From a virus, in IMG/VR virus record IMGVR_UViG_3300002835_000024: DNA of 64,000 nucleotides, one strand, 5' to 3'. Below, one piece after another: positions 5,302-11,037 of this stretch. A program made the position numbers and the translations under genes. Position 1 is the stretch's first letter. Each line of letters begins with the position of its first letter. The notes below the pieces were generated by a model. The model had not been told where the DNA came from. It did not search any database and saw only the letters and a program-made list of their open reading frames with translations.

Positions 5302-5332
5302 TTGACTTATAGGTCAGAAAAAGGTATAAATA
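5302..5332 (+). promoter_or_regulatory. Composite promoter: sigma70 -35/-10 overlapping a T4 late box
   Basis: TTGACT(5302-5307)-N17-TATAAATA(5325-5332). Confidence 0.75.
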
Positions 5333-5472: not shown

Positions 5473-6264
5473 ATGGGTAAATTATTACAAATTATAAAAG
5501 AAACTCTTTCTGATTATAAAGTAATAGTTTCGCCTCATCCCATTCACTATAGGCGTCCTTATGGAATTTCCAATTTAGACTCAGCAATGTCAGAAGCTTC
5601 TCGAGTCAAAGCTTCTCCAGTCAGTGCTTTAGAACCAGATGAAAAATCTCTAGACGAAATATCAGAAAAACTGACAAAGGACAGGCCAAAAATTTCAGAA
5701 ACCCAAGCAGGTCATGTTGAAGATTATACTACTGATGAAACTGGATCTTCTTATCATATCAATACTTCTCTTATTGACGCGCATAACAATGGAACGCACC
5801 CTGAAGGAGATATGATATATGAAGATAAACGAATTCATCGCACTATTTCAAAATTAACTGAGAATCCAATTGGTCACAGTGTTGATCTTTATTCTGGTGT
5901 TGGGTTTGATCCTGAAAAACTATTAGGTGGTTCTTCTAATTCCATATTGCATCTACCCGCCCACACATCAACGACACATTCTCCTCTCGTCGCGCTTAAA
6001 CACGCCATGGACAATCGTCCGAGAACTGGCAAAGGTAATGGGAATGCTGGCAACACAGCCCACATAATTAAAATTTCTACCACACCAAAAACAAAAGGAT
6101 TTCATGTTGGTGATTTGTCTGAGTTCAATAATGAACGAGAAACAATTTTACCAGCCAAAACAAACTTGATACATTCACATACAACAATGCATACAGATGA
6201 GAATAATCCAAATATAAAAGTGAAAATACATCATTTTGCGGTTCATTCTCAGGAAAACGATTGA
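5473..6264 (+). CDS. ADP-ribosyltransferase-like protein (VIP2/Alt/Mod fold)
   Basis: DYT...SYHINTSL, LYSG (in place of YRG), HTSTT, LSEFNNERETILP (ExE). Confidence 0.72.
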   Translation: MGKLLQIIKETLSDYKVIVSPHPIHYRRPYGISNLDSAMSEASRVKASPVSALEPDEKSLDEISEKLTKDRPKISETQAGHVEDYTTDETGSSYHINTSLIDAHNNGTHPEGDMIYEDKRIHRTISKLTENPIGHSVDLYSGVGFDPEKLLGGSSNSILHLPAHTSTTHSPLVALKHAMDNRPRTGKGNGNAGNTAHIIKISTTPKTKGFHVGDLSEFNNERETILPAKTNLIHSHTTMHTDENNPNIKVKIHHFAVHSQEND

Positions 6265-6291
6265 CAAACTATAAAATATAGGGTATAAATA
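6261..6291 (+). promoter_or_regulatory. Composite promoter for tmRNA: consensus -35 plus T4 late box
   Basis: TTGACA(6261-6266)-N17-TATAAATA(6284-6291). Confidence 0.8.
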
Positions 6292-6295
6292 GTCT

Positions 6296-6612
6296 TAATG
6301 ATAGTAAACTGATGGGTGTTAAAGCAAGCAAGACGAGGGTGCGAATCCCTCCGCCTCCACCAAAAGCAGTATGTAAAGGTTGTTGACCTTCATCATATGC
6401 TAGCTAGGTAAGTAGAATTCTTACTACATACTGTTTTTGATGGGGGCGAATTAGGATCGATTGGTTGTGAATAAATCCAAAGGCTATCCGGATGTTCTCC
6501 GTTAAACGAACAAAAACTAGAAATGCCAACGATAACGAAGTTGCATTTGAGACTCGCCTAGCGGCATGATCTCGACGGGCACGGAGGACGCCTTGGAACA
6601 GAAGTTCCTCCA
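6296..6612 (+). ncRNA. ssrA: Circularly permuted (two-piece) tmRNA, alphaproteobacterial type
   Basis: The acceptor piece ends GAGGGTGCGAATCCCTCCGCCTCCACCA (6362). Intervening sequence 6363-6441. The coding piece starts GGGGGCGAATTAGGATCGA (6442). Tag frame 6525-6569 = ANDNEVAFETRLAA*. 3' GGAACAGAA hairpin. Outer ends approximate. Confidence 0.93.
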
Positions 6613-6643
6613 CTAATCTTAACATGTTAAAGGAATGAATAAA

Positions 6644-6826
6644 ATGAAATATATTGCTGCTGCTCTTGTTCTCTCTCTTGCCGCCTGCTCGCAAGAAGCT
6701 CCTGTTGCTCCTCCGGTCGAGCCTGCTCCTCCAGTTGAAACACCAACTCCTGTTGCTCCTGCTGAGCCGCCTGCTGTTGTTGAACCTGTCAATCCCGCTG
6801 AAGCTGCAACCACTGTAGCTCAGTAG
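6644..6826 (+). CDS. Small Pro/Ala/Glu-rich lipoprotein
   Basis: Signal peptide II MKYIAAALVLSLAA-C with lipobox LAAC and Ser at +2; mature part EAPVAPPVEPAPPVETPTP... Confidence 0.75.
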   Translation: MKYIAAALVLSLAACSQEAPVAPPVEPAPPVETPTPVAPAEPPAVVEPVNPAEAATTVAQ

Positions 6827-6838
6827 TTTATAGGAAAG

Positions 6839-6870
6839 TTATCCAAGGTTACTAACATAACCTTGGATAA
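6839..6870. repeat. 13-bp perfect inverted repeat between lipoprotein and TBDR genes
   Basis: TTATCCAAGGTTA-CTAACA-TAACCTTGGATAA, extendable imperfectly to about 6829-6878. Confidence 0.75.
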
Positions 6871-6917
6871 TTTCTATATAATTTGGTCAAATATCATGAA
6901 TTCGAGAGGAACGGAGA

Positions 6918-9191
6918 ATGATTAAAAAGGCTTTATTACTAGCCACAGCTAGTATGGCTATTGCGCCTGCAATTTATGCGCAACAACATGATGTTGTTAT
7001 TATTACTGCCACTAAGACTGAAACTGATCTGCAAGATACGCCTATTTCAGTAGCTGTGCTTGACGACGAACAACTGGTAAAAAGAAATGCAGGAAGCTTG
7101 CTTGATCTTTCTGATGGATCAGTTCCAAGTCTAAGAATCGCAACTTTCGAATCCAGACAGTCTGCACTTACAGTAGGCATGAGAGGAATTGTGCCAGGAG
7201 ACGCTAACCAGCCAGCTAGGGAACAAGGTGTTGGTGTTTACCTTGACGGAGTTTACATGGGCAGACAGCATGGTCTAAATGCTGGGTTTCTCGACATTGA
7301 GCGTGTTGAAGTTCTTCGTGGTCCACAGGGTACGCTGTTTGGACGAAATACCGAAGGTGGGGCTGTGAACATCATCAGTAAATCTCCAACAGGAGTTTTT
7401 GGAGGATCTTTCAGCGCTGGAGTTGGTAATTACGGAATTTATTCTGGCAACTTCCGTCTTAATTTGCCGGAGTTTGCTGGTGTTTCTGTAAAGATGGATG
7501 CGGGAATTCAACATCAAGACGCGACCACAAAAAACCCAACCCAAAATCAATATGGATGGAATTATCATCACAGGTATGGCGGAAGAATAGCAGCAAGGTG
7601 GGAACCTACGGATACTTTCCGTGCTGATATTGCTGTTGATTCCAGCAGAGATCAAAACACCCCCTATTTCAGCCAATTGATTAACTATAATCCTCTGAAC
7701 AGACCTGTCGCGACACTTTCTCAAATTGCTGCAGCTGGCAATAAAATACCTTCCGGATATGTCGCGCCTCTTCCTAGCGTTGTTGTGGTGCAACCCGATC
7801 GTGCCAAATCTGCCGCAGTTGGAGTTCCTCAAGAACCAAGTATCGGCAAATCTTCAGGTATCACTTCAACCCTAACTTGGGACATCAATGATGATCTTGA
7901 GTTTAAATCTATTACAGCAAGGCGTGAAGTGTCAGATCGCCAGTTTGATAATTCAGGTTCAGCTAATCGCACACCTGTTTTTGTCCCTAACGCCACATTC
8001 AGTAGATATTCAATCGCTAAATTGAATCAAGAACAGTTTTCACAAGAGTTCCAGCTTATTGGTTCAATGGACAATTTAACCTATGTTGTTGGCGCTTATT
8101 ATTTTACGGAAACTGCTGATGATGAAGCAAGAACTCCCAATACTAATAAATGGAATGCCTTTGGCACAGCCTACACCTTTGTTGATCCCAGCACATATTC
8201 GCTAACGCCAATTGCTCGCGCTTCACAAGCAGAAGCTGATAGCTACGCTCTCTATGGCCAGGCCACATATACGGTAAATGATGATTGGCATTTTACCCTT
8301 GGTGGTAGAGTTACAGAAGATAAGAAAAATGGTAAACTGTTCACGGTGAATGGCGCAAGCACTAATCTAACCTTCAGACAAGAGAACAGACGATTTGATC
8401 CGCTTGCTACGCTTGTTTACGATTTCAATGATGATATCAATGTTTATGCAAAATATACAACAGGATATCGTGCTGGCGGAGCCAGTTCTCGGTCACTGAT
8501 TTATCGTTCTTTTGGACCTGAATCTGTGAAGTCATATGAAATTGGATCCAAGATGGATCTATTTGATAACACCAGACTAAATGTTGCTGCTTATACCATG
8601 GACAGAAAAGACAGTCAGGTTGATTTCAATTTCTTTGTCCCCCAACCAAACGGTACCGTCCGCAATACCCTCGAAACAGTGAATGCGGAAGGCACCACAA
8701 AAATCAAGGGGCTTGAAGTAGATCTAACTGTAGAACCAATTGATGATCTTAAGATGGCTGTTTCATATGCATATACGGACACTCTGATGCCACTCGCCCG
8801 TAATACTGTGCAAGAGCAACTTAATGCATTGCTGACTCCACCTAATCTGTCTCCGGTATTCCAGAAAGTGTTCATCACATATACCCCAGAACATGCTTTG
8901 TCAGCATCTGTTGATTATGACATTGTTGATTGGAGTTTTCATATTGATGGAAACTATTCATCACCCCAATACACTTTTGACAACGAAGATGTTCAAAATG
9001 AAGAAAGCTTTGTTGTCAACACTCGTGTAAGTAAAGAATTTGAAAACTTTACAGTTTCAATTTGGAGTCGTAATCTTTTTGATACGTCTTACATTTATAG
9101 ACGTTCAAATGCCAACGGAACAGTGTTGGGCGATTATGCAAACTTTAATGAGCCTAGAACGTTTGGTATCGACTTCACAACAAATTTCTAG
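6918..9191 (+). CDS. TonB-dependent outer-membrane receptor, full length
   Basis: Sec signal, TonB box DVVIITA, plug motif DIERVEVLRGPQGTLFGRNTEGGAVNI, barrel C-terminus RNLFD...PRTFGIDFTTNF ending in Phe. Confidence 0.95.
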   Translation: MIKKALLLATASMAIAPAIYAQQHDVVIITATKTETDLQDTPISVAVLDDEQLVKRNAGSLLDLSDGSVPSLRIATFESRQSALTVGMRGIVPGDANQPAREQGVGVYLDGVYMGRQHGLNAGFLDIERVEVLRGPQGTLFGRNTEGGAVNIISKSPTGVFGGSFSAGVGNYGIYSGNFRLNLPEFAGVSVKMDAGIQHQDATTKNPTQNQYGWNYHHRYGGRIAARWEPTDTFRADIAVDSSRDQNTPYFSQLINYNPLNRPVATLSQIAAAGNKIPSGYVAPLPSVVVVQPDRAKSAAVGVPQEPSIGKSSGITSTLTWDINDDLEFKSITARREVSDRQFDNSGSANRTPVFVPNATFSRYSIAKLNQEQFSQEFQLIGSMDNLTYVVGAYYFTETADDEARTPNTNKWNAFGTAYTFVDPSTYSLTPIARASQAEADSYALYGQATYTVNDDWHFTLGGRVTEDKKNGKLFTVNGASTNLTFRQENRRFDPLATLVYDFNDDINVYAKYTTGYRAGGASSRSLIYRSFGPESVKSYEIGSKMDLFDNTRLNVAAYTMDRKDSQVDFNFFVPQPNGTVRNTLETVNAEGTTKIKGLEVDLTVEPIDDLKMAVSYAYTDTLMPLARNTVQEQLNALLTPPNLSPVFQKVFITYTPEHALSASVDYDIVDWSFHIDGNYSSPQYTFDNEDVQNEESFVVNTRVSKEFENFTVSIWSRNLFDTSYIYRRSNANGTVLGDYANFNEPRTFGIDFTTNF

Positions 9192-9200
9192 GGCATTATT

Positions 9201-9455
9201 ATGTCAAAAAAAGTAGAAAAGATAAAAATTGAATTGGGTATAAATCCCGATGACGTTTTTGCAAACATTGAGCGTATTGTGAACACCTGTAATACCACAT
9301 ATTCTGATGCAATCATACATTATTGCCAACAAAGTAATAACGAGATAGAAACTATCGCCGATCTCGTGAAGAGCAATCCTAAACTGAAACACGCTCTTCA
9401 ATTAGAATATGAGGCACTCAATATGCTCCCCAAAACATCAAGGTTGCCAATTTGA
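9201..9455 (+). CDS. gp33: Late promoter transcription co-activator
   Basis: TYSDAIIHYC...IETIADLV...LKHALQLEYEALNMLPKTSRLPI; 33-59-32 synteny. Confidence 0.85.
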   Translation: MSKKVEKIKIELGINPDDVFANIERIVNTCNTTYSDAIIHYCQQSNNEIETIADLVKSNPKLKHALQLEYEALNMLPKTSRLPI

Positions 9456-10030
9456 TTTCACCGTTTGATGCGTATCAAAAGTTCTTATCAATCAAACAAC
9501 ATTTCAACTCTGATTCCTACGATTATCTAAAATATCAAGGGAAATTGAAACTGGATCTCACAAAGTTTCAAACAAGAAAGGATAGATTCTTTTTTGAGAA
9601 ACTCGCTAAGAAGAAAGATATTGAAGGTTATATTATTGCCAATCTGATCAATAGTGATATTTCTTGGATCGGAGATCTTTTCTCTGATAAAGCAGAAAAG
9701 AATTACACTGATTGGCTCAAGAGAAAAGAATCTCTCACATACAATTTTAAAAATGAAATAGGGCATTTGCTCGAAGATTTCGACAAAAACTTTATTGTGG
9801 AAGATGGACAACATCCATATTTGTTAAAGCTTTTACGACAGGGCAAAGTTTCTCTAGAAACAGTAATCATCCTGAATGATATAATTGGTTTCATCGGTCA
9901 TTGGAAAAAGAACATAAAAGATAATGTTGTTTGGCCAATTTTTTTAAGAAAATGCTTGAAATATAGACCCTTTCTAAGTTATGATAGGGCTAAGTTTAAG
10001 AAGATATTGAAGGAAAAATTCGTCAAATAA
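9452..10030 (+). CDS. gp59: Helicase loader
   Basis: AYQKFLSIKQHF, YDYLKYQGK, RKDRFFFEKLAKK, ETVIIL, KYRPFL. Confidence 0.9.
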   Translation: MISPFDAYQKFLSIKQHFNSDSYDYLKYQGKLKLDLTKFQTRKDRFFFEKLAKKKDIEGYIIANLINSDISWIGDLFSDKAEKNYTDWLKRKESLTYNFKNEIGHLLEDFDKNFIVEDGQHPYLLKLLRQGKVSLETVIILNDIIGFIGHWKKNIKDNVVWPIFLRKCLKYRPFLSYDRAKFKKILKEKFVK

Positions 10031-10097
10031 ATATTTCATTATAGTACTATAATACCAAAACAAAACAACATACATCGTAATACAAGGATATACAAAA

Positions 10098-11006
10098 ATG
10101 AATTTCAACGATCTTAAAAAACAGAAAACGTCAAACTTCGAGAAGCTCACCAAAGCCGTGAGTTCTCTGAATAAAACCTCCGAAGGAAATGATAAAGATA
10201 CCACTTTCTGGACACCTACAGTGGACAAAGCTGGTAATGGTTATGCGATCATTCGGTTTCTTCCTGCGCCCAATGGCGAGGATCTTCCCTTTGTTCGAAT
10301 CTGGGATCACGGATTCCAAGGTCCAGGCGGATGGTATATTGAGAAGTCTTTGACGACACTCGGCAAACCCGATCCTGTTTCTGAATACAATTCCAAACTC
10401 TGGAACTCTTCCGCAAGCGACGACAGTCCTGAGCGCAAACAGGCCCGCAAACAAAAGCGTCGTCTGAGCTACGTCTCCAACATCTACGTTGTCAGCGATC
10501 CTGGTAACAAAGAGAACGAGGGTAAAGTTTTCCGCTACAAGTACGGCAAGAAAATCTTTGAGAAGATCAATGATATGATGCATCCTGTCCATCCGGACGA
10601 AGAAGCTATGAATCCTTTTGACTTCTGGGAAGGTGCCAATTTCAAACTCAAGATCCGTCAGGTTGATGGATATCGCAACTATGACAAGTCCGAGTTTGAG
10701 AAAGCGGCTCCTCTTTCTGATGATGATTCAGAGCTCGAGGAAATCTGGACTAAACAGCATTCTCTCAATCAGCTGATCGCTGAGAGTGAATTCAAGACCT
10801 ACGATCAATTGAAAGCTCGTCTTTCTCTTGTTCTGGGAGATGTTCCTCGGAACTCGAACCGTGATGAAGACGAAGAAGCTCCTCCACCACAGAAAGCTTC
10901 TGCTGCTCCTAAACGAGCAGCTGCTCCCGCTAAGAGGGAAGTGGTTGATGATGACGATGAGGACACTCTAGAATTCTTTAAGCGAATTGCTGAGGAAGAT
11001 GAATAG
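10098..11006 (+). CDS. gp32: Single-stranded DNA-binding protein
   Basis: DKAGNGYAIIRFLP, GGWYIEKSLTT, NPFDFWEGANFKLK, NYDKSEF, acidic tail. The A/C-rich unstructured leader at 10055-10097 fits gene-32 autoregulation. Confidence 0.97.
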   Translation: MNFNDLKKQKTSNFEKLTKAVSSLNKTSEGNDKDTTFWTPTVDKAGNGYAIIRFLPAPNGEDLPFVRIWDHGFQGPGGWYIEKSLTTLGKPDPVSEYNSKLWNSSASDDSPERKQARKQKRRLSYVSNIYVVSDPGNKENEGKVFRYKYGKKIFEKINDMMHPVHPDEEAMNPFDFWEGANFKLKIRQVDGYRNYDKSEFEKAAPLSDDDSELEEIWTKQHSLNQLIAESEFKTYDQLKARLSLVLGDVPRNSNRDEDEEAPPPQKASAAPKRAAAPAKREVVDDDDEDTLEFFKRIAEEDE

Positions 11007-11010
11007 ATTA

Positions 11011-11037
11011 AAGAGGGGCTTCGGCCCCTCTTTTTTT
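11011..11037. terminator. Rho-independent terminator with UUCG loop, probably bidirectional
   Basis: AAGAGGGGC-TTCG-GCCCCTCTTTTTTT between convergent genes. Confidence 0.92.

Follow-up and report, generated by a model that had tools for sequence, protein, structure and literature searches.

The 64,000-nucleotide stretch of viral DNA analysed here (IMG/VR record IMGVR_UViG_3300002835_000024), referred to below as the window, encodes a complete TonB-dependent receptor (TBDR) at positions 6918-9191, among the core genes of a T4-like phage. On balance, and with modest confidence, we regard this gene as a host-derived transporter that was captured from a Sphingorhabdus-like sphingomonad and retained by the phage as an auxiliary uptake gene, possibly one linked to phosphorus. 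Its product probably keeps a scarce nutrient flowing into infected cells. Auxiliary uptake is the best reading because the gene is intact, keeps almost every position that is invariant in its family, is under purifying selection and has been retained in many phage lineages. A homologue in the host, residence in phages and selection for function in those phages, three marks of an auxiliary gene, were found for this receptor.

The receptor gene encodes a complete transporter

The gene and the parts of its product are as follows.

6918-9191, plus strand: TBDR gene, an open reading frame of 757 aa with no internal stop
Residues 1-21: signal peptide
Residues 25-32: TonB box
Residues 38-149: plug
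Residues ~160-757: 22-strand barrel, ending in a C-terminal Phe

The start codon is preceded by a ribosome-binding site, GGAG, 4-7 nt 5′ of the ATG. Read by eye from the translation, the protein begins with a Sec signal peptide, in which a KK n-region and a hydrophobic core lead to a cleavage site after residue 21, between IYA and QQ. The TonB box, DVVIITAT, aligns with xIVVTAT in 55 relatives. Residues T30, A31, T32 and K33 are invariant in 19 close relatives (alignment A1), and A31 is invariant in all 56 sequences of a broader alignment (A2). No Pfam match was obtained to the STN signalling extension of the FecA/FpvA type, and merely three residues separate the predicted cleavage site from the TonB box. 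Pfam did recognise the plug (PF07715, residues 38-149; 59.4 bits against a cut-off of 23.9, E 5.7e-16) and the barrel (TonB_dep_Rec_b-barrel, PF00593, residues 313-720; 124.5 bits against a cut-off of 27, E 1.4e-35). The translation ends in FTTNF, so that the last residue is Phe.

An AlphaFold2 model built from 56 sequences had a mean predicted local distance difference test score (pLDDT) of 79.8 and a predicted template modelling score of 0.80, with the barrel at a pLDDT of 80-94 and the plug at a moderate 43-73. It superseded an earlier model built from 19 close sequences, which had a pLDDT of 56. A Foldseek search with the model returned FyuA first (4epa; template modelling (TM) scores 0.71/0.84), followed by Fiu, FhuA, FoxA and PqqU (TM ~0.7). 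The probability was 1.00 for ~400 chains of TonB-dependent transporters, and the solved structures are merely 15-18% identical to the TBDR in sequence. The stretch 6918-9191 thus encodes a complete canonical TonB-dependent transporter. A sequence-only reading made earlier from the same DNA had described a 757-aa receptor with signal peptide, TonB box, plug and terminal Phe, and this description is borne out by the translation, the Pfam matches and the predicted fold.

The receptor gene is embedded in a T4-like phage genome

The immediate surroundings of the TBDR gene contain the following features.

6644-6826, plus strand: orphan lipoprotein gene of 60-63 codons (alternative start at 6635), with lipobox LAAC and Ser at +2
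9201-9455, plus strand: gp33, T4 late-transcription coactivator (PF16805, E 5.9e-12), starting 9 nt past the TBDR gene
9452-10030, plus strand: gp59, T4 helicase loader (PF08993, PF08994)
10098-11006, plus strand: gp32, T4 single-stranded DNA-binding protein (PF08804, E 3e-44)
11010-11033: terminator-like hairpin after gp32

The distance of 9 nt to gene 33, already given in the sequence-only reading, follows from the TBDR stop codon at 9189-9191 and the gene 33 ATG at 9201. T4 core genes flank the TBDR gene on both sides, with RNase H upstream and gp33, gp59, gp32, Gp51, a baseplate protein, gp2 and the gp5 OB domain downstream. A longer copy of the same contig shows the RNase H, Gp51, baseplate, gp2 and gp5-type genes and in addition PhoH, 4.5 kb upstream of the TBDR gene. 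According to the protein record, the gene is carried by a contig of 144,760 bp; the carrier is a T4-like phage of lytic type, ~145 kb in size, probably with a sphingomonad host. A megablast search of cultured and deposited phages with 6 kb gave no match. In the same collection, tblastn with the receptor gave merely matches of less than 30% identity, in records resembling bacterial contamination.

Contig L001 is 100% identical to the window over 19 kb and is not independent of it. The orphan lipoprotein gene was detected on 19 contigs and is stably kept in this phage population. The 757-aa TBDR adjoined the lipoprotein gene in every listed place that was long enough, in JGI, ENA and Logan assemblies representing at least eight samples and three pipelines, and gp33-gp59-gp32 came next where the contig extended. 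Six of these assemblies were colinear with the window over 3.2 kb without indels. They share three substitutions within the TBDR gene, two of them synonymous and one causing M193V, and so represent a second haplotype. Because the same lipoprotein-TBDR-gp33-gp59-gp32 order has been assembled from at least eight samples by three pipelines, the junctions of the TBDR gene are real. The earlier view of the gene as embedded and not contaminating therefore holds, and a chimeric assembly at the junctions, which that reading had allowed for, is contradicted by the independent colinear assemblies.

The phage copies form a clade next to Sphingorhabdus orthologues

The proteins closest to the TBDR in a large protein database were 66-77% identical. 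The best matches in reference genomes came from Sphingorhabdus and other Sphingomonadales (65-70%), with Novosphingobium at 55-63% and Caulobacter at ~53%. One of these orthologues, in Sphingorhabdus rigui DSM 29050 (L050:7878-10243), is present as two overlapping frames, 7878-8321 and 8294-10243, which would be explained by a frameshift or a sequencing error. When IMG/VR was scanned with an alignment as query, 17 viral loci were recovered; a single-sequence query recovered none.

A maximum-likelihood tree of 94 sequences divided the viral copies into two clades. The clade containing the window's gene, V1, was supported by a value of 99 in the Shimodaira-Hasegawa-like approximate likelihood-ratio test, and was sister to Sphingorhabdus orthologues (96-98) within the Sphingomonadales. 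The second viral clade lay deeper (support 100), and its members are ~50% identical to the window's gene. A member of this deeper clade (L011:5043-7666), on a putatively viral 159-kb contig of low GC content, is preceded by two DUF1552 (HXXSHH) genes and followed by genes for sugar-modifying enzymes. Further database matches were added in a second tree, in which all seven copies with confirmed phage context and eight whose context was unlabelled there formed one clade (99), and all named bacterial sequences fell within its sister clade. On inspection, one of the eight unlabelled copies (P0042) had a phage-like context. The V1 relatives that are 68-77% identical to the window's TBDR are L002/L003/L004, L007, L008, L018, L104/L106, L119 and L120; in the second tree, L119 is the nearest of the relatives with known context.

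Base composition sets the phage copies apart from their bacterial orthologues. The window's TBDR gene has 42.2% GC, with 31.7% GC at third codon positions (GC3), and its flanks have 38.3% GC. All viral copies have 36-46% GC and a GC3 of 21-40%, matching their flanks, as compared with 51-68% GC and a GC3 of 51-95% in 79 bacterial orthologues. The gene had been called AT-ameliorated from its letters alone, and the comparison agrees with this. The simplest history would be a single ancient capture from a Sphingorhabdus-like donor, after which the gene stayed in phages for a long time.

Phage copies are constrained and occupy many genomic positions

The ratio of non-synonymous to synonymous substitution rates (dN/dS) between phage copies was 0.031 at an unsaturated dS of 0.14, and 0.036-0.097 in deeper pairs. 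Bacterial pairs gave 0.058 and 0.086, values that the phage copies match. By these estimates the phage TBDR copies are under strong purifying selection. Of the 143 columns that do not vary among the other 55 family members, the window's TBDR retains 142, and the single exception, V29I in the TonB box, is conservative.

Clade V1 occupies at least seven distinct phage neighbourhoods, in T4-like and in jumbo phages.

Before gp33: this window
After gp45-gp44-gp62-regA: L002, L003 and L004 (three samples)
After an 8-strand outer-membrane protein gene, in a related phage: L007
ClpX-Hsp20-ClpP-TBDR-Toprim: L005, L006 and L008
Hydrolase_2-TBDR-HD_4: L104 and L106 (334-kb contig and at least 17 further contigs)
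HD_4-TBDR, with Hsp20, ClpS and ribosomal protein S21 close by: L120
Between both ribonucleotide reductase subunit genes (nrdA-TBDR-nrdB): L119

The 150 nt upstream of six phage copies did not align with one another, so that the leader is not conserved; the shared element is therefore the coding sequence and not a regulatory cassette.

Some of these neighbourhoods have features of their own. In L119 (3547-6954) the gene for the large subunit of ribonucleotide reductase is split by a GIY-YIG endonuclease gene and bears an intein. The T4-like phages L002 (17006-17515) and L007 (4798-5241) encode an 8-strand OMP_b-brl protein near the TBDR, and hence two outer-membrane proteins. In the jumbo-phage-like contigs L120 and L008, ClpX, ClpP, ClpS, Hsp20, ribosomal protein S21, an HD_4 protein and peroxiredoxin are found around the TBDR gene.

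Pho-box-like repeats precede many bacterial and some phage copies

A phosphorus-linked compound is the best lead for the substrate because the bacterial orthologues lie behind Pho-box-like repeats. The repeat TGTCA-N6-TGTCA, with at most one mismatch and within 450 nt upstream, was present at 48 of the 79 bacterial orthologues, compared with 1.7% of control windows. It was found in 31 of 61 intergenic gaps upstream of TBDR genes and in 13 of 299 other gaps at the same loci. Five phage copies (L002, L007, L018, L016 and L017) have an exact TGTAA-N6-TGTAA on the coding strand, at a distance of 36-121 nt upstream. The density of this motif upstream of those five TBDR genes is 1.25 per kb, as compared with 0.02 per kb in the rest of the same loci. 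Sites of this kind were located as follows.

L002:9940-9960: TGTAA-N6-TGTAA
L007:5330-5350: TGTAA-N6-TGTAA
L018:7860-7880: TGTAA-N6-TGTAA

The TGTAA repeats resemble AT-shifted Pho boxes, which suggests that the gene may have been left under host phosphate control in those phages.

The sole recurrent neighbour of the bacterial TBDR genes was a divergent gene for an OmpR-family regulator, present in 43 of 80 bacterial loci; an example is given below.

L021:6924-7601, minus strand: OmpR-family regulator gene, divergent from the TBDR gene

This atypical regulator matches the PhoB model at positions 51-226 only, with ~145 bits, its receiver being either truncated or degenerate. In each of three genomes checked, the genuine PhoB (330-336 bits) is encoded at another locus. 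Occasionally the bacterial TBDR gene has a gene for a histidine kinase or for an M16 peptidase close by, and a gene for a phosphate-selective porin follows the TBDR gene in one bacterial genome only. In Caulobacter, several TonB receptors are reported to be under PhoB control and are presumed to import alternative phosphate sources (PMC11208175). Taken from motifs of this kind, the phosphorus link of the substrate is a supported lead and not a result.

Promoters, tmRNA and lipoprotein upstream of the receptor gene

Four further elements lie upstream of the TBDR gene.

5302-5332, plus strand: early-type promoter, TTGACT-N17-TATAAATA
6261-6291, plus strand: early-type sigma-70-like promoter, TTGACA-N17-TATAAATA, the nearest recognisable promoter upstream of the tmRNA, lipoprotein and TBDR genes
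6300-6614, plus strand: permuted two-piece transfer-messenger RNA (tmRNA) of alphaproteobacterial type (RF01849 match 6257-6614), with tag peptide ANDNEVAFETRLAA
6839-6870, plus strand: perfect 14-bp hairpin in the spacer that separates the lipoprotein and TBDR genes

The TATAAATA box occurs nine times in the window, always on the plus strand, and only the two promoters listed have a −35 element, TTGAC(A/T), at a distance of 17 nt. The other seven sites, which lack a −35 element, resemble T4 late promoters, and none of them stands before the TBDR gene. The TBDR gene shares its orientation with the early and middle replication genes, and we infer that it is expressed early or middle, from transcripts that run on through the hairpin or that begin at an unrecognised promoter. 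The hairpin could be a partial terminator, or an element for RNA processing or stability; no conserved counterpart lies upstream of the other phage copies.

The tmRNA was identified by two Rfam models (RF04321, 123.8 bits, 6300-6569; RF01849, 113.2 bits, 6257-6614), and ARAGORN agrees. Its tag is ANDNEVAFETRLAA in the phage, as against ANDNEALALAA in three genomes of the Sphingorhabdus clade. The phage tmRNA DNA has merely ~30-nt matches to Sphingomonadales tmRNAs; its acquisition therefore appears to be old, and it is of no help in assigning the host.

The mature lipoprotein consists of a 45-residue tail rich in Pro, Ala, Val and Glu, without a recognisable folded domain; if extended, it could span the periplasm. 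No Pfam or NCBIfam family matched it. In a search of 5.8 billion proteins its sole match was itself, and tblastn gave merely low-complexity noise. No relative was found beside any other phage or bacterial TBDR copy examined. The sequence-only reading had raised the possibility that the lipoprotein blocks the host receptor while the phage TBDR acts as a replacement channel. This proposal found no support, the lipoprotein being an orphan that is rich in Pro, belongs to no recognised family and has no relative beside the other copies.

A possible role in nutrient uptake during infection

In the scheme that we propose, the ancestor of a freshwater phage group would have captured the TBDR gene once from a Sphingorhabdus-like sphingomonad, and the captured gene would then have drifted to phage base composition and spread to varied positions in T4-like and jumbo phages. 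In the present phage its transcription would accompany that of the early and replication genes; RNA polymerase would either read through from the promoter at 6261-6291 or start at an unrecognised promoter within the 91-nt spacer. After export of the protein via Sec, the host β-barrel assembly machinery (BAM) would recognise its C-terminal β-signal and insert it into the outer membrane, where host TonB-ExbBD would energise it through the conserved TonB box. Import of the substrate would in this way be maintained or raised during shutdown of host gene expression. Loss of the Pho-type operator in this phage would make expression of the TBDR independent of the phosphate status of the host. Expression, membrane insertion, transport, substrate and benefit to the phage are the inferred parts of this scheme.

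Several observations weigh against this scheme. The window's copy has the longest private branch, 0.42 in the first tree, a value that drops to 0.24 once P0002 (77% identical) enters the second tree. It also has 32 private changes at positions that are fixed in nine close relatives, where other sequences have 1-7, and two short deletions (six and seven residues) in variable segments of the C-terminal part. The long branch and the deletions could reflect a shifted function. As to the substrate, sequence matches to solved structures are weak, with FpvA among the best, and the subfamily models assign none. Genes for phosphatases, Pst or phytase are not recurrent around ten orthologues of the Sphingorhabdus clade, and the Pho-type repeat could serve the adjacent OmpR-family regulator, and not PhoB, as operator. 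In the phage itself, the repeat is absent from 6200-6925, even with one mismatch and with either form of the half-site, and the TBDR gene has no clear promoter of its own.

Alternative explanations

The phage TBDR might instead remodel the receptors at the cell surface, by replacing, diluting or masking the host orthologue, which may itself serve this phage or its competitors as receptor. The outcome would be superinfection exclusion, or progeny spared from adsorption to debris, and the adjoining lipoprotein might take part. We consider this unlikely, if credible. That TBDRs serve as phage receptors is well established, as in the case of FhuA with its partners T5 pb5 and Llp, and the FhuA complexes with pb5 (8b14) and Llp (8a60) were among the fold matches of the TBDR. 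Surface remodelling would also be consistent with the faster evolution of the window's copy relative to its relatives, with its private deletions in variable segments, and with the presence of a lipobox protein directly upstream in the same orientation; a role of this kind has been proposed for phage-encoded outer-membrane proteins (bioRxiv 10.64898/2026.10.24.761521). However, the constraint on the phage copies equals that on bacterial transporters, and the TonB box, the plug and all but one of the invariant columns have been kept, none of which would be needed in a mere decoy. The lipoprotein, moreover, is confined to this phage and has no recognisable folded domain, and the other six phage contexts have no such lipoprotein partner.

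A bolder proposal, to which we give less credence still, is that the captured transporter became a mobile gene that passed between unrelated phages (T4-like phages of ~125-145 kb and jumbo phages of ~330 kb) and was rewired in each. Some copies would have remained subject to the operator by which the host responds to phosphate starvation. In the present phage, such a gene would have been uncoupled from the phosphate operator and placed behind an early promoter with the tmRNA and the orphan, periplasm-spanning lipoprotein. It would have evolved faster, and would have shifted from nutrient import alone to a new function in the envelope, for instance the exclusion of competitors that exploit the host orthologue.

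Import of iron, as siderophore or haem, or of vitamin B12 is improbable. It would agree with the database label 'iron complex outer-membrane receptor', with the siderophore receptors that are the best matches in NCBIfam (TIGR01783), in PDB sequences (FpvA) and in fold (FyuA), and with the position of the relative L119 between two genes for ribonucleotide reductase subunits. Siderophore receptors, however, dominate the solved structures, so that best matches to them are to be expected for any TBDR. In the curated NCBIfam subfamily models the TBDR stayed below every cut-off and reached no characterised receptor subfamily: the score was 132.6 bits against 223.5 for the siderophore model TIGR01783, 85.7 against 316.9 for the haem model TIGR01785, and 51.7 against 599.7 for the B12 model TIGR01779. 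Fur-box-like sites were not enriched upstream of the 79 orthologues, and neither the window nor eight related loci yielded a cobalamin or other riboswitch. The iron and B12 readings were rejected on these three grounds. Of the earlier suggestion of an auxiliary uptake gene for iron, B12 or organophosphate, the uptake function thus stands as the best reading and phosphorus has gained indirect support from the Pho-box-like repeats, while iron and B12 have gained none.

That the gene is a product of chimeric assembly, or a passenger without function that arrived recently, is very improbable: the window's contig and L001, identical over 19 kb, are not independent of each other, but in six more assemblies, obtained from other samples and with other pipelines, the gene order is unchanged and free of indels, and a second haplotype is seen; the ameliorated composition, the low dN/dS and the phage-only clade across several phage lineages argue against both.

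Relation to known transporters and phage genes

As a putative captured uptake gene, the phage TBDR can be compared with chromosomal orthologues of freshwater Sphingorhabdus and other Sphingomonadales (for example on the MAG contigs CAYRDQ010000007.1 and NZ_JAYSAI010000021.1 and the chromosome OZ248511.1), which are 65-70% identical over their full length and have the same domain order of TonB box, plug and barrel. The orthologues have 51-68% GC and usually lie behind a Pho-box-like TGTCA repeat and a divergent OmpR-family regulator, whereas the phage gene is without both and lies among T4 core genes. No experimentally characterised member of this orthologous group was found. The other V1 phage TBDRs, from uncultured freshwater phages, have genome positions and neighbours of their own; some keep TGTAA-N6-TGTAA, which the window's copy lacks, and among them the window's copy alone has a lipoprotein gene and a tmRNA upstream.

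TBDRs have been reported in phages. The marine megaphage Mar_Mega_1 carries a SusC-like gene (PMC9723777), Lak huge phages carry a 22-strand TBDR with transcript evidence (bioRxiv 10.64898/2026.10.24.761521), and phages of ammonia oxidisers carry TBDRs (bioRxiv 10.64898/2026.05.02.722434). This literature goes further than the sequence-only reading allows, in which PstS and small transporters were named as the usual nutrient-uptake genes of phages. By description, on which the comparison is based, the published phage TBDRs are likewise complete outer-membrane transporters of host type, read as genes for uptake or envelope remodelling. Their carriers, mostly huge or temperate, infect Bacteroidota or Nitrosomonadales, whereas the gene described here lies within the gp33-gp59-gp32 cluster of a ~145-kb T4-like phage of lytic type whose host is probably a sphingomonad. 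No report of a TBDR in T4-like phages of freshwater sphingomonads was found in our literature searches. With phage-borne TBDRs already known, the novelty lies in the donor, in a clade that is confined to phages and occurs at many positions, in how strong selection is, and in the contrast of copies with a Pho-type operator to the present copy, from which it has been lost.

Cyanophages and pelagiphages carry pstS and phoA, phosphate genes that are controlled by PhoB of the host. The logic is alike, in that a host phosphate-starvation gene is found in a T4-like phage, and some of the phage TBDR relatives keep a Pho-box-like repeat. The gene described here differs in encoding an outer-membrane transporter, and not a periplasmic binding protein or a phosphatase, and its Pho link comes from motifs only, the motif being absent in the window's copy. 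T5 Llp, which blocks FhuA (PDB 8a60), and the present lipoprotein are both small phage lipoproteins that could be linked to a TBDR, a likeness of category only. The lipoprotein here is rich in Pro, has no recognisable fold and no Pfam or NCBIfam match, and adjoins a phage-encoded receptor rather than a gene for a receptor-binding protein.

The phage nutrient genes known so far mostly act in the periplasm or the cytoplasm. If a phage supplied its own energy-coupled outer-membrane gate, this would imply that the first step of uptake can also limit phage production in nutrient-poor lakes. Copies with and without the host Pho-type operator provide a natural comparison, which makes regulation and substrate experimentally approachable. 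The TBDR also suggests a likely host group for an abundant uncultured freshwater T4-like phage.

A putative host-modifying gene upstream

One further gene was recognised upstream of the tmRNA.

5473-6264, plus strand: ADP-ribosyltransferase gene (PF03496, E 1.2e-5)

It is preceded by the early-type promoter at 5302-5332 and is reminiscent of host-modifying enzymes of the T4 Alt/Mod type.

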